A DNA stretch of 63,633 nt, filler included, from Neolecta irregularis DAH-3 (Eukaryota), in NCBI GenBank assembly GCA_001929475.1. It is 18 parts of 18 records of this genome, joined end to end, with 100 filler letters (N's around TTAATTAATTAA, not from the genome) between each part and the next. Parts side by side here need not be neighbours in the genome. Positions count along the whole stretch, not along the records: positions 44,582 to 48,088 come from LXFE01001662.1; positions 48,189 to 51,862 come from LXFE01001663.1; 16 more parts are not named here. The stretch is one strand, 5' to 3'. Made by a program: the position numbers and the translations under genes. Shown here piece after piece: positions 3,200 through 51,962 of this stretch. Each line of letters begins with the position of its first letter. The stretch's first letter is position 1. The notes under the pieces were generated by a model. It ran no database searches. It was not told the origin of the DNA and saw only the letters and a program-made list of their open reading frames with translations.

Positions 3200-6100
3200 A
3201 TGGATACTCAGTCTAGCGCAGACGTTGGCAATACAAATAAGCCAGGAATTGACTTTGATGGTATCCTCGCGACGCTTCAGAACCTTAGCCCGAATGACCA
3301 ACGGCGAATCATGGCCGCGATGTTCCAGCCACAGCAACCGATACCGACGGTAGCAACTGCAGCTCCTACGGATTACCGAGAATATGTAGAGAACCGTTTT
3401 GTCGAACAGCAACTAAATGGTCAGAGACCATCTGATGGTCTTCAACATTCTGTAAATCAACACATGGTACATCATCCTCAATACCAGGCCCTACCAAGTC
3501 ACCAAACATCGAATTATATTTATGATCGAGGCCGTACGTTTTCTTCGAAAGGAAATGTCCCTCACCACGTTTCGTCGAGTGGACAACCTGTTACACCGCA
3601 TCTGTTGAATCGACCAGTTTCGACTGATTATGGAAACAATGCGCTAGCTTCTCAGAACGTACAACGACACCAGCAACAATTTCCAAGTATTCGACATCCT
3701 GGCACTCGACCATTTAAATCTCAAGACATGCAGCCGGCCCAAAACACAAATAAACCTTCATCTCTTCCACCTCGACGGACCTACAAGGCGTGTAATCCAC
3801 ATGCAAGTCAGATATCTCAGCAGCCTTCGGCTCAACTATCGCAGAGCGCGGATACTATGCGGCAGCAAAAGATTGTCTTTAGTCCCCTTGCCCAAATGCA
3901 GCCTCAAATTTGGACGATGGCCTCTAAGGCCCGTGGTGGTCGTGAACCAACTCTGCCGAGTCAATCTCAAGGTCCAGCGATTCCGCCATCAGAGGCATTT
4001 CGTCGATCGTATAATGCATCGCAACTTGCAATAGGACAACCTGCGAATTTCAATCCTTCAGTTCGAGTTTCTCCCCATGTAATGCGACCAACTGTCCCTC
4101 CTGTTCGACCGCAACCAATTCATACCGTTCGTCCTCAAAATGTCGAAACTAGTCATACTTCCCTTCCTCCGCCTTTTCAACAAACTCCTATTCAAAACTA
4201 TCCTGTTCAGCAGCCCGAGCGATCGTGGCAACCGTGGCATCTTTCTATACTCACCATGACCGCTGTATTTTTTTCGCGTGGAGAAATTGATCCCCAAGTC
4301 ATGCATCATAAAATAGCTCGATACGTGCATGAAAACCCCACGATGACATTAGAAGAACTTGTGGTTCTCATGCAAGATATGAACATCAACATCAACTATC
4401 AATCTGCACTGTATGCACTAACGACAACTCCATCGGAGTTTAAAAGTCTTGAAAAGAAGGCACTGTTAATGCGACAAAGTGTTCTTGTTCGTCAGGCGGA
4501 AGAGCGAAGCAGGATTCATCAAGGGAGCGAACCAGTCGTTTCAGTACCGGTTGGTCTGCAACCTAAACAACCCCCTCCGCGAGAAATTTCTCCCTTGAAT
4601 CTGGGTGGCGTCACCGCAGTGGACATCCTTTATACTTCTGGTTCTCTATACGATATATGGAGTAAGAAGAAGATGAATTCTGGACTGGATTGTTTGAAAA
4701 AGATCTTGCCTCCTGATACAGATTTATCGACGATAAATTGGGATGTTCTTGATCCGCCAAGCGGAAAACCTGCAGAACCAAACGCAATTGCTGCATATAC
4801 GATCGATTATTCCCTCTTTTCTAAGAGATTTGAGAAATTAAAGAGTCTAGGTCCTGTTGCAAGGATCGTCGAGATAGGAGGTTCTCCAAGAGTTGCTGAC
4901 AAAAGCGGTTCTAAACCCTCGGTTGTTGCAACGGCTAGTGATCTACGGGCTATACGGAGAGACTCGGAGGATGGCCGTAGTGATCCCGTGGTAAACGGCG
5001 AATGTTTGCAGACTCCTGGTCTGTTGAACCAGCCTGATTTGCCGGCTCGTGTACAGGTACCCAAGGCGGTCGAGACACATATCGCGCCATCCGATCCAAC
5101 GGTCGAGATTCCTTTCGACTCGGATCCAAAACCTCCATTTTCAAACTTGCAATCGCTTATTCCCATGGAAGTGGACGATCAGCCACCGCTAGTGATAGAT
5201 GAGGCTCCTGTCGAGGTTAGTAGAGGTGCTAGAGGTATACTATTGTTTCACATAATCGTCAGCTAATATTTGGAAGAAAACGTTGTTCAAAATACATCTT
5301 TTACGGATCTCCGGAGCGAGACTAATATTGCTCATGACTATGGAGCGCAGAGTACCATTTTGACGAAAAGCCACCTTGCTAACAGCCAGCTCGAAAAAAT
5401 CAATCTCTCAACGGGATCTCTGATAGCAATGTGGAGATGGTATCGATGTCAAATGTTGGGTCGTCTGGAGTCATTTCAAAAGTGAAATCATCGAATGCCA
5501 TATCTGGGCTTCACTCTGATGATAAATTTTTGCATTGGCATTGTCCTGGTCAAGGTATAATGGAAACGAAAGCGAATAACATGATAGATATTACAAGTCC
5601 ACTATTACAAATTGGACGTCGCAAGGCGCCCAGAGCTAGCAGGAAACGAAAAGCAAGTACGACAACTACACAAGGACAAGAACGGCGAAATCCAACGTCT
5701 ATGGTGATTGATTTAACTGGCGACGAGGACGGAGCTACAGAAACACAGAGAAAACAGGGANNNNNNNNNNAAGCTAGCAGGAAACGAAAAGCAAGTACGA
5801 CAACTACACAAGGACAAGAACGGCGAAATCCGACGTCTATGGTGATTGATTTAACTGGCGACGAGGACGGAGCTACAGAAACACAGAGAAAACAGGGAGA
5901 ATCGCCTTTGACAAGGGAAAATGAAATTCCGCGGTCATCGCAACGACAACAAAAACAAACGAGAAAACAGGGAGAAATGGAACCCTCTCTGACACCGGCG
6001 AATGACCCGCGGTCATCGCAACGACAACGACAACAAACAATCAAACAGGGAGAAACACAGAGAAAACATGAAGAAATGGAATCCTCTCTGACACCGGAGA

Positions 6101-6966
6101 ATGACCCGCGGTCATCGCAACGGCAACAAAAACAAACGATTAAACAGGGAGAAACACAGAGAAAACATGAAGAAATGGAATCCTCTCTGACACCGGAGAA
6201 TGACCCGCGGTCATCGCAACGACAACAAAAACAAACGATCAAACAGGGAGAGACACAGAGAAAACATGAAGAAATGGGATCCCCTTTGACACCGGAGAAT
6301 GAAATCCCGCGGTCATCGCAACGGCAACAAAATTACAAAATCTACGGGTGCGAATTCCGCAGATGTAGAGCGGAACTACACAGTTTCGAAACGCTGATGC
6401 ATCATATTTTCAAAGTGCACGGAACCGAGACATATCCGTCGCAGTCGCCTGAACCTGAGAAATGGTACTGCATGTGGATTGACTGTGCGTCTGTATTTGA
6501 ATCTCGGGGAGCATGGATCCAGCATATATCGCTTGAACATCTTCAAACACTGCGACAAGCATCGACTGTGCCATGTAGAGTTGACGGATGTGCGACGCCG
6601 TTGACTCCCGAGAACCAAGATTTGCATTATTTGACTGTTCATCCTGATTTTGCGAGGGACGAATGGAATGCGCCTGATGCGATTGGTTCGGAATTATACC
6701 AGACGCCATTAATTTCTGTCCAATCAGGCGATTCTCCGGACCCGTTCCAATCAACTCGGAAAAAAAGGAGTAGAAAGAGTTTTACACCGGGTCGGGTGTT
6801 GTGTGTGGCTGGCTGGAGCAGCGACTATGAAGACATTCTCGCTCCACTGCTCGGACCAAAAAGATCAGTATCTAGCGACGATCCAAAGCCGAAATCAACA
6901 TCTAGCGAATCGTCTCCTGTGCTCGCGGGACCTGGACCGTGGATGACGATCAACCAAGACCTCTAA
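3200..6966 (+). CDS. Large Gln/Pro-rich protein with three C-terminal C2H2 zinc fingers and internal tandem repeats
   Basis: Three ORFs joined by introns at about 5236-5277 and 5352-5389. Fingers CEFRRC..HIFKVH, CMWIDC..HISLEH and CRVDGC..HYLTVH; DLSTINWDVLDP motif; VIDLT SIM-like motif. A 10-N gap lies at 5761-5770. Confidence 0.7.
5900..6330 (+). repeat. Coding tandem repeat, about 117 nt (39 aa) unit, about 3.5 copies
   Basis: Repeated SLTPENDPRSSQRQQKQTIKQGETQRKHEEME. Confidence 0.9.
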
Positions 6967-48038: not shown

Positions 48039-50699
48039 ACTAGATCATATAAAAGTGAATAGAACCAATCAATCGTTTTATACAAAATNNNNNNNNNNNN
48101 NNNNNNNNNNNNNNNNNNNNNNNNNNNNNNNNTTAATTAATTAANNNNNNNNNNNNNNNNNNNNNNNNNNNNNNNNNNNNNNNNNNNNGATCATATCAAG
48201 CCACATCAGCCTAACCTCCACTATCCAGCTATAGGGTAAGGCTATCTCATTACACTTTCTGTACTGCAGATCATCAAGAACCATTGCCATAAAATCTCTC
48301 AGTGCCACTCCAAAATATTCATAGTCAGCAATACAGGTTCTACCATCCTTCATCTTCAAGAAGTTCTCCTTAACAAGTCTGTATAAAATATGGCAAGGTC
48401 CTCCTCTGACCACTTGACTGTGTGGTTAGGATCAAGGTACTTGATGGCCTGATATCAGATCAGCATGTAGTGTGAGAGGGGATGTGAAACTTACATGATT
48501 GATATGCTTCTGCAGATTGGTGATGGTGTTGCACTCCTTGGGCTCTAGACCATACTGAAATAGAGGATGATGCAAAAAGGCTCCTCCGATGGGACCCAGT
48601 GTTGCTGTAGTAGGTAGGAGAATAGACAGAAGTTCTAAAAATGCCCTAGCCCTGTCCTGCAAAGAAGCGAAGTCATTGTAATTGATGTACTCAGTGACAA
48701 TATATGTAAATCCATGATCTTTGTTGGTAAATGCCCAGAAGACTTCTGGAGTATAAATGGTCTTGGACAGCTTAGATTTCTCAAAAGCAAATCACTGATT
48801 CCTGGCCTCACTCATTTCTATGTCAGTCCCAAACTTGATGAAGTAAAGTGGCTCATTGATCAGCCAGTGAGCATGGTTCGTGTTGCCTTGAGGCTTGTCA
48901 TAAGCCATCTCACATACATCTATGATTTCCTTTCTTTCTGGCAACTGACAGTCTCCTGGCCATTTTGAAATCTTCAGTTTTAGTCATGATGGTTGTAAGA
49001 TGAGTAGGCGATTTGAGAGTGGGAGAGTTGGAGAGTAGGAGAGGTGGCTGTCTAGAGCTTTATGAGGTGTGTGTCAGACAAAGGTTATGCTGACCCAAGT
49101 AGGCTGTGCAAATGACAAGACCAATCATGGCCTGTCCCACCTATGGGCCCCAAGGAGGCAAAGTCATGTCATGCAATGCAATGTGTGCCTAATTATGCAG
49201 CCTACAGTTTTACACATCCTTTGTGGTTTCAGCCCGAAGCAAGTCTATGGTGTATGCACACAGCCATTGGCTCATATGCAAGGATCATCACACCATACGT
49301 GGCAGCAGCTGCCTCCTGATGATTTGGACAAAATTCAGCTCATTTAATCATGGAGGAGGCGTCCCTCTTCCACCTTGCCAAGGCAGACAGATACAGAGCA
49401 TACCAATCATAGACCACAGTTCAGCAACAGATCACAGATTTGGATGAATTATTAGGCACTGATGGCCTGTTGAGCTGAGTGGCTATTTTGAGAACCATTT
49501 TCGAATCAGAAAGTCAGATGGGTGATTCCTGTGAACATGAAGGACATACAAACCGTAATTAGCTTAGTTAGAGCCAGTTCAACCATGACTTTAGCCTGGA
49601 TGAGTGGACATCTGCAGGATACTAAGTCCTCATAGCCTGCACAGATTTCCAAATCAAACACCAAGGAGGATTGGTATCATTGTTGAGCTTACTGAGACCA
49701 TGCCACCTTCTTATGGTTGGTCTACCATGACCTGTCTTGCTCCTACTCCAAAGCATACACTGCTACTGCACCATCAGATCAGCCCTCTTGGATGCTCAAG
49801 ACATGAGCAAGTCTAAGATAAATTTGCAGATTTTGCTGTCATCATAGGCAGCTTCTCCCACTTTCTTGCCATTTTGGCCTGCAAATACAAAGTCTATAAA
49901 GAGGGTCTTCACATAGATTTCTCTACATCACAGCAATTCAACCTCATCTGAATACCAATATCTACAAAGACATTCTTTCAGTACACATTTGACTGCTTTC
50001 TTTCTCTCAAAGACATATCTTCAAGTTACCTTACCCAACTCTCATCATGTCCACCACCAATTATTTGAATCCATCAACTTGCCCCAGAGCATTCATGATA
50101 TAGTCCTCAAGCAAGATGGTAATCTCTTGTGCCTAGACCTTGGGGCTATGCTCGGGCAAGGAACTGTGGAATAGTGCAAGTTGCTCTTGGGCAAGAGAAA
50201 GAACCATGTCACCTATCAAGTTGGTTTCAAGGAGGACCTTCCCACTACCAATACACTAGGTGTACATCACTCACTCGGTGCCTTAATTGCTATAGATGTC
50301 AAGTGAGACAGTTATGGGTCCAACTAGGCTCAATATGCTGGCAGCAATGAAAGCAATGAGCATGTTGTGCATGGAGCACCAGTGAATGGAGTTTTAAATG
50401 TCAAGTTCACCTGTTACACCAACCTCCCCCCCTATAAGGCAATCCGCAGCTTCCCCTTCCATCTGAAACGCCAAGATGTTACACTTGGTGAGATGCTTGA
50501 TGTAGCCAAGAACAGTCAGGACTTCAAGTTTGTCAAGAGAGGGACAGTAGCAATGGGCTGCCATCACTGGAAGTGAGTATCATATATGATATTAAAATTT
50601 ACAGGCACTAATAATATTACCTAAGCTCATCTTTCATCACCTTCTTGCAAAGGCAGGACTGGTTGAACCTATCAATGATGATTTCCTAGGTGACCTTGT

Positions 50700-51215
50700 T
50701 GGTATTCTGACAAACCACTTTTCTCCAATAGTTGTGGAAGGTGGCCCCATCAGCACGGAATTCTTGGGTCATGTCTGCTGTTCAATAACCAATTCTTGTT
50801 GAGCATGTTGAGTATTTAGCTTTGCAATTGCCTTCCCAGTTTTTTGCAAAAGATTCCAATTTTCCCTTGTTAATTTTTGCCACATATTTAAGCTTTCTGT
50901 AGTGAAATATACTTGTTGAGATGTTGTAGGAGTATGAAAAAGGTAGATATCATCTGAATTTCGGAATCTTTTGACTCAGGTGGATTCAATGACTTTAGCT
51001 GGGTTCCATGGAAATAAACCAGCAGCTTTCCAACCACCTCTAATAACCCATTCAGTAAGAGATTGCTGTCTTGCATCAAGGTAATATTGAATAAACCAAT
51101 TTTTCTTAACTGGAGCTGCATCATCAATATAAGCAAGTTCAGTGATTTCTTTTCTATATCCTGCCTTCAAAGGTGAAAAACAGGACAAATCCAAAGGTTG
51201 CAAGATATGAGATGG
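50700..51215 (-). mobile_element. Fot1/pogo-type DDE transposase relic
   Basis: SHILQPLDLSCFSPLKAGYR...IRGGWKAAGLFPWNPAKV; truncated and interrupted. Confidence 0.8.
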
Positions 51216-51962
51216 AAACTCTTCCTGTGTTGGAGGCAATTGCTGGTAATTTTGGTGGTTTTCCTCAGATTCACTGAATTAGTGTTGACTGTGGGATTCT
51301 GTATGTGGCCATGGTGGCTTTAGTGAGGTAAATTGCTATATGGATTATGCCCAAGCATACTTCCACCTTTTATTACAGAATTAGGCACAGTACCAGCAGC
51401 AGATGAGTGGATTGACAAGATGGGCAGGCAGGTAGGAGTGAGGGACAGGTGGGTAGGAGTGAGGGATAGGCAGGCAGGCTGGAGTGAGGGACAGGCACAA
51501 TGGATGGGAACAATTGCACTGGCAGGAGGGAGGGACAGGTGGGCAGGAGGGAGGGACAAGTGGGTGGGAGGTAGGGGCAGGCATGATAGAGGGGAACAGG
51601 TGAGTGTGTGGGAGGGAGGGAAAGGTGCATGGGAAGGAAGTAAAGATATGTAGAATGGTGGGAGGGACAGGCAAATGGGAGGGCAGGAGAAATAGGTGCA
51701 TAGTGGGAAGGAGGGAAAGGTGTGCAAGAGGGTGGGAGGGTGGTTGGGAAAGGTGTACAAGAGGGTGGGAGGGTGGTTGGGACAAGAGGGCAGGATGGCA
51801 GGAGGGCAGGAGGGCAGGAGGGCAGGAGGGCAGGAGGGCAGGAGGGCAGGAGGGCAGGAGGGNNNNNNNNNNNNNNNNNNNNNNNNNNNNNNNNNNNNNN
51901 NNNNNNTTAATTAATTAANNNNNNNNNNNNNNNNNNNNNNNNNNNNNNNNNNNNNNNNNNNN

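Follow-up and report, generated by a model that had tools for sequence, protein, structure and literature searches.

The DNA analysed here, called the window, is a stretch of 63,633 nucleotides (filler included) from Neolecta irregularis DAH-3 (assembly GCA_001929475.1). One of its contigs, C1967 (LXFE01001663.1), lies at positions 48189-51862 and has lost nearly all of its CpG dinucleotides. The whole contig, 3674 bp in length, is made up, mosaic-like, of relics of repeats and of decayed genes (Table 1). It contains 15 CG dinucleotides, exactly matching the count of about 15 in 3.67 kb given in a first-pass annotation of the sequence, compared with 182 expected from its base counts, i.e. a CpG observed/expected ratio (o/e) of 0.08. 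The earlier expectation was 150-170 CG at about 43% GC, and the GC content is 45%; the depletion itself is confirmed. In the remaining 18 N-bounded segments of the window the o/e was 0.63-1.22 (pooled 0.89), so that the loss in C1967 is about 11-fold.

Table 1 Features of contig C1967 (positions in the window; CG counts are given as observed vs expected)
Feature	Position	Strand	Basis or remark
Whole contig C1967	48189-51862	.	Repeat relics with decayed genes, as a mosaic; o/e 0.08 throughout
End of a high-copy repeat, terminating TTACA	48189-48254	+	Many contigs match at 89-100%
Gene broken into three reading-frame pieces (48792-48983, 48432-48791, 48189-48425)	48189-48983	-	Reading frames
Stretch for which no second copy was found, 832 bp	48255-49086	.	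4 CG vs 37.5
Short repeat common to C3596 and C4105	49087-49201	.	0 CG vs 7.3
Repeat mosaic	49262-51258	.	Other contigs at 67-98% identity; 10 CG vs 88
Decayed multi-copy gene (GCHHW piece at 50328-50576)	50175-50802	+	Frames; copies on three other contigs
Relic of a pogo/Fot1-type DNA transposon	50771-51299	-	DDE_1 C-terminal part and element end common to C916, C2730, C3048 and C3772
Low-complexity tail rich in purines, containing short tandem arrays of periods 21, 33 and 8	51259-51862	+	0 CG vs 28.9

The depletion was even along the contig, with an o/e of 0.00-0.19 in every 500-bp window, and it was alike in the repeats and in the 832-bp stretch. No second copy of this stretch was among the 43 matches listed in the genome search (their number being a lower bound), and one exact contig of 1462 bp in run X1 covers it. 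In the bin that holds the end of the high-copy repeat the summed contig depth in run X1 was 48,909, compared with 515 in the adjoining bin; this repeat end is probably the terminus of a long terminal repeat (LTR). Run X1, which may come from the very sample that was assembled, covered all 30 bins of C1967, with a depth of about 515 on the single-copy part, and was not used as evidence on contamination; run X2, with a small share of low-depth pieces, was not used either. The Fot1/pogo relic noted in the first-pass annotation was recognised as PF03184 (DDE_1, E 1.4e-5), placed by the genome search at C1967:2842-3111. The decayed gene with the GCHHW piece matched no Pfam family at E<0.01. The broken gene might be a relic of a fungal phosphotransferase- or kinase-like gene: its look-alikes in the Atlas (0.92-0.94) belong to fungal clusters, at a recognition value of 2289, below the tool's bar of 2300, and neither a Pfam match nor a homologue among longer proteins was found. 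The CpG count of the purine-rich tail carries less weight because of its simple repeats.

The deficit is specific to CpG. GpC was normal (0.99), and CA+TG, already described as abundant, was raised (1.41), with a (CA+TG)/(AC+GT) ratio of 1.70. TpA was not raised (0.69 compared with 0.75 in the rest of the window), TA/AT was 0.66, and CAG/CTG was not depleted (1.5). Except for CA/TG, AG and AA, the other dinucleotides were close to those of the rest of the window. The deficit is thus CpG-specific and matched by the products of deamination, and C1967 shows neither the CpA-based index of repeat-induced point mutation (RIP) nor a loss of CHG sites. The absence of a CpA/TpA signal agrees with the first-pass annotation, which had set the CpG signature apart from Neurospora-type RIP.

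Comparison of C1967 with its copies gave 354 transitions and 201 transversions. At 64 sites one copy has CA and the other TG, which is the mark of a single ancestral CpG deaminated on opposite strands. Among the adjacent double transitions 66 of 80 were of the CA/TG type, and every other type occurred 1-4 times. The GCHHW piece had been considered compatible with a change of CGT to CAT or TGT, and the alignment shows precisely these states at codon 50562-50564: C1967 has CAT, C3837 has CGT, and both C3127 and C2688 have TGT. For the FTCY motif, which had been read in the same manner, the only copy extending over it reads AGT rather than CGT.

Rates were taken from 45 non-overlapping copy pairs from all fetched loci, leaving out a duplicate locus (L126), alignments shorter than 150 bp and pairs of <80% or >99.5% identity. 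A tally from CpG-rich to CpG-poor copies (0.39 at CpG) was set aside in favour of these pairs, as its pairs overlapped and were chosen on CpG content. In the 14 pairs of at least 93% identity, 93 of 213 CpG sites were kept in both copies, and the rate per cytosine was 0.41 at CpG and 0.036 at other cytosines, an 11.5-fold difference. Transitions between copies are thus biased towards CpG, which supports the earlier proposal of a CpG-targeted methylation or RIP-like defence. The CpG losses had no preferred 5' neighbour (TCG 124/539, VCG 179/806, p 0.74), and TCG was the best retained of the residual CpG contexts. Losses to TG and to CA were randomly interleaved: adjacent losses were alike in 90 of 171 cases, where 86-87 were expected (p 0.32), although this test used 24 short series with modest power, and several rounds of mutation could blur runs. 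The rate of differences at CpA was only 0.047 (46/969), compared with 0.034 (27/803) at CpT.

The depletion had been described as confined to one contig. This holds within the window, but CpG is scarce as well in copies of these repeats on other contigs of the genome, and further repeat-rich contigs were depleted (o/e 0.22 in C1586, 0.20 in C947, 0.19 in C3102, 0.16 in C2249 and 0.05 in C864). Reverse-transcriptase loci (n=30) ranged from 0.00 to 1.16, six of them being below 0.35. All 30 SNF2 gene loci were at 0.76-1.18. When every 50th contig was sampled (C25 to C1975, up to 10 kb from the contig start, spanning under half of the contig numbers), two strongly depleted contigs were found among 40, with 837 of 90,300 bases. 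Strong depletion is therefore limited to a small compartment, most repeats having lost only part of their CpG. The gypsy fragment of the window (C1981; L051, 61074-62192) has an o/e of 0.67, and transitions separate it from a copy of 91.5% identity (L112) at about 20 CpG sites, CpG decay being in progress there. In the first-pass annotation solo LTRs and the gypsy fragment were said to retain CpG and the process to look regional; this fragment is losing CpG as well. The process tracks repeats as well as regions, affecting whole repeat-rich contigs and also relics of 200-570 bp within gene contigs.

Such relics were found for the pogo element. Its end in C1967 recurs at 79-83% identity inside C916, C2730, C3048 and C3772. 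These four contigs are 13-28 kb long and have an o/e of 0.77-0.92 over the parts read, and three of them carry metabolic genes recognised by Pfam (AICARFT/IMPCHase, PfkB and DAO). The embedded relics contain 15 CG where 58 are expected, and five of their eight 500-bp flanks were at 0.66-1.07. Within C916 normal sequence passes into depleted sequence, and C3837, which bears a copy of the GCHHW gene, is normal elsewhere along its length. The embedded copies differ pairwise at 2-4 CA/TG sites, indicating that CpG loss continued after the copies had split.

Several other depleted or repeat-bearing loci were noted. Three retroelement contigs have long open frames of 436, 594 and 982 amino acids, namely C1942:1-1312 (L034), C3471:1-3326 (L036) and C391:1-2418 (L037), with 0 CG vs 37 expected, 3 vs 99 and 8 vs 79, respectively; they may represent element lineages purged of CpG yet still functional. 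The sequence C864:1-4272 (L105) is AT-rich (GC 30%), has 5 CG vs 94 expected and has the 66-bp repeat end in common with C1967. Chromodomain matches were found at 59 places in the genome, mostly on short contigs, several of them with a reverse transcriptase (C671, C1469, C3382 and C1265); the latter could be chromovirus-type gypsy elements with a potential for heterochromatin targeting.

A search of the genome with PF00145 gave five matches of five candidates, representing three C5-methyltransferase loci: a DNMT1, a gene resembling DIM-2 and a candidate for a RID/Masc1-like gene, all three types having been named in the first-pass annotation. Two of the proteins, the DNMT1 and P0001 (below), are labelled Neolecta irregularis in a source, in agreement with the Taphrinomycotina lineage considered in that annotation. 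On C936 lies a DNMT1 of 1208 amino acids with RFD, two BAH and methyltransferase domains (the latter at residues 735-1184), in which the catalytic PC motif, spanning an intron, is intact. In a quick tree of 55 rows it groups with DNMT1 of Mucoromycota, the nearest named relatives being from Spinellus, Phycomyces and Pseudogymnoascus. The contig is otherwise normal in CpG, but the ratio falls locally to 0.24-0.52 just upstream of this gene, at C936:18250-19500 (L025 1250-2500), where there is a frame rich in Asn and Thr. The gene on C554 has a DUF7893 and a weak RFD domain, and only two PDB sequences matched its N-terminal part, 9BAQ and 9BAP (E 5.5e-20), both Neurospora DIM-2 structures; by this best match it is considered DIM-2-like.

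The third protein (P0001, on C1257) has PF00145 only, at residues 441-758, without RFD or a Pfam BAH domain. Its Atlas neighbours are ascomycete PF00145-only clusters, among which no named RID occurred (names were obtained for six of 20 clusters looked up). In the quick tree, which includes no named RID, it is separate from DNMT1 and lies next to proteins from Mycena and diatoms. A short methyltransferase domain without RFD and BAH has been used as the criterion for RID/Masc1 (PMC4352252), and we infer that P0001 is RID/Masc1-like (DNMT4). Its gene (L026 2424-5512, plus strand) ends 60 bp from a convergent gene of the RecA family (5575-6351, minus strand), which, by eye from the translation, resembles the meiotic DMC1.

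DNMT5 was not found: none of the five PF00145 matches lay on a SNF2 contig, and no methyltransferase was seen in the seven SNF2 regions read, a weak test in which no DNMT5 query was used. The genome also has a Clr4-like gene with chromo, Pre-SET and SET domains and four SRA-domain loci, on C1125 (L178 / L158 5989-6762, minus strand), C3748, C1429 and C3689, one of them at 156 bits; these are candidate readers of hemimethylated CpG. In the window itself a gene for an HhH-GPD base-excision glycosylase (E 7e-21) lies at 1177-2256 on the plus strand, which is relevant only if the enzyme handles T:G mismatches.

The explanation that we consider probable is that the repeats are CpG-methylated, that DNMT1 maintains this methylation and that deamination of 5-methylcytosine on either strand finally removes CpG. 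C1967 would then belong to the fungus's own genome, as silenced chromatin derived from repeats. The repeats might be marked by Clr4-type H3K9 methylation that recruits the DIM-2-like enzyme and/or by premeiotic marking through the RID/Masc1-like enzyme, similar to methylation induced premeiotically (MIP). DNMT1 would keep the symmetric CpG methylation through replication, and 5-methylcytosine would turn to T independently on either strand, each CpG becoming TpG or CpA. Copies that are old or have been methylated for a long time would end up nearly CpG-free, young copies would be part-way, and genes would keep their CpG. The transition spectrum is CpG-specific, the loss is restricted to repeats and to contigs rich in them, and the enzyme genes are present, whereas methylation itself, its targeting and the roles assigned to the three enzymes are inferred from general knowledge of these enzyme families.

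Some observations weigh against this explanation. Much CpG is kept at 24 of the 30 reverse-transcriptase loci (o/e at least 0.35), so marking would have to be partial or recent. Three of the eight flanks of the embedded relics were at 0.30-0.50, i.e. the borders are not sharp everywhere, and C1967 itself is not physically joined to any gene contig. The genome search gave no match to an HP1 chromo-shadow domain, which leaves the DIM-2 recruitment step unsupported, although the test was weak, the control being also without a match. In older bins the ratio between CpG and other cytosines was down to 5.7-5.8, for which saturation is our candidate explanation. Finally, some selected young pairs were stripped of CpG (0 of 10 kept) while other cytosines had changed in 4 of 153 cases, a point ratio of 57 with a lower bound of 9; such total stripping may exceed passive deamination.

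This stripping is the kind of pattern that could come from RIP-like premeiotic hypermutation at CpG, in which the RID/Masc1-like enzyme would mark duplicated DNA and cause bursts of C-to-T mutation with no lasting methylation. The gene for such an enzyme is present, short relics are more depleted than the gene contigs around them, and eight rich-to-poor pairs had point ratios of 14-102. However, these pairs were picked for their asymmetry and have lower bounds of only 2-9, the near-identical pairs L043/L050 and L055/L059 keep many CpGs, and the 832-bp stretch is as depleted as the repeats. Strand-coordinated C-to-T runs are a feature of Neurospora-type RIP. As there were no strand runs, no preference for TpCpG and no CpA/TpA index, methylation followed by deamination fits better than RIP, the other option of the first-pass annotation, and we regard the RIP-like alternative as unlikely. 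Two more specific forms are rejected, Neurospora-type RIP at CpA by the TA/AT value, the similar CpA and CpT differences and the lack of strand-coordinated runs, and RIP at TpCpG by the similar rates of mutation at TCG and VCG.

It is also conceivable, though doubtful, that an ancestral ascomycete defence is seen here, in which DNMT1 and the DIM-2- and RID/Masc1-like enzymes jointly drive an accelerated, CpG-directed erasure of repeats, a precursor of CpA-RIP strong enough to select for CpG-free open retrotransposons. The erasure postulated would act on both strands without a 5' preference and could strip a young copy of all its CpGs.

Rather improbable is a fossil footprint, i.e. methylation in the past or in donor elements, the depleted state being copied by transposition while the system is weak or off today. 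The open but almost CpG-free retroelements on C1942, C3471 and C391 would agree with a spread of CpG-poor lineages, and many other repeats retain CpG. However, pairs of 93-99% identity already differ heavily at CpG, which points to decay until recently, the CA/TG differences between the embedded pogo copies date from after their split, and DNMT1 is full-length. As the assembly is of tissue collected in the wild, C1967 could be foreign DNA from the conifer host, from an animal or from a different fungus, but this is very improbable: the contig is short and unjoined, but the same pogo family is locally CpG-poor inside four contigs of typical composition, three with metabolic genes, which connects this repeat family, and the process, with the main genome and makes the contamination considered in the first-pass annotation unlikely, as do the transition within C916, the GCHHW gene copy on C3837 and the agreement of most non-CpG dinucleotides with the rest of the window. 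In plant repeats methylated at CHG a depletion of CAG/CTG is expected; with no loss of CHG, and with a fungal-type pogo common to gene contigs, a host-plant origin is rejected.

To our knowledge, fission yeast and Pneumocystis, the main known Taphrinomycotina, have no DNA methyltransferases. DIM-2- and RID-like sequences have been described in Saitoella and Taphrina, with no RIP by CpA-based indices in three Taphrinomycotina genomes, in a study whose main text does not include Neolecta (PMC7882544). The first version of a preprint on Pneumocystis centromeres stated that no Taphrinomycotina has DNA methylases (PMC10327204), while the revised version reports their detection in Neolecta irregularis and Saitoella complicata, consistent with an earlier study (10.1101/2023.05.12.540427). 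The contrast with S. pombe stressed in the first-pass annotation is a smaller surprise than supposed, as the methyltransferases of Neolecta and Saitoella were already in print. Judged from literature listings, subscription papers being outside the scope, no report of a CpG-decay footprint in Neolecta was found; in the 12 of 19 supplements of PMC12543289 that were searched, the species code appeared only in a trophism table.

The footprint is real and well supported. It reflects a process that is known, but apparently not yet described from this lineage. The mechanism is textbook and the enzymes have been reported; what is new is the lineage, not the system. Taken together, the footprint and the DNMT1, DIM-2-like and RID-like genes suggest that repeat-targeted CpG methylation worked in Taphrinomycotina until recently, and imply that S. 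pombe, which lacks it, has lost it. Screens for RIP that are based on CpA miss this type of defence.

Among the known systems, Neurospora-type RIP resembles the situation in Neolecta in its DIM-2-like and RID-like genes and in the erosion of repeats by C-to-T changes, but it targets CpA, gains TpA and enriches AT, whereas C1967 lacks a TpA excess and still has a GC content of 45%. The RIP-like hypermutation of Pucciniomycotina, defined by a strict 5' T (TpCpG; PMC3318451), similarly affects CpG in repeats, but in Neolecta TCG is mutated no more than VCG. In Microbotryum, Puccinia and Melampsora a CpG-to-TpG signature in repeats has been linked to Masc2/DNMT1-type genes and deamination (PMC4352252). 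Neolecta shares with them this signature in repeat copies and a DNMT1 with RFD and BAH domains; according to the same source they have only the class IIA gene, while Neolecta has the DIM-2-like and RID-like genes in addition. In Tuber melanosporum CpG methylation of transposons was measured and is non-exhaustive, an excess of C-to-T changes was ascribed to deamination, and there was no TpA/ApT RIP index (PMC4165359). Ascobolus is listed with Masc2/DNMT1, DIM-2 and Masc1, and both of these Pezizomycetes are listed with DNMT5 (PMC7862722), which was not found in Neolecta in our limited test. Methylation was measured in Tuber and Ascobolus, whereas Neolecta is known from its footprint alone, and its depleted fraction is small (2 of the 40 sampled contigs). 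Nevertheless, the Neolecta footprint is like Tuber methylation and the MIP of Ascobolus immersus in that it prefers CpG, targets repeats, is non-exhaustive, spares genes and leaves no RIP index, and with its candidate RID/Masc1-like enzyme Neolecta would have the same three classes of methyltransferase as Ascobolus.

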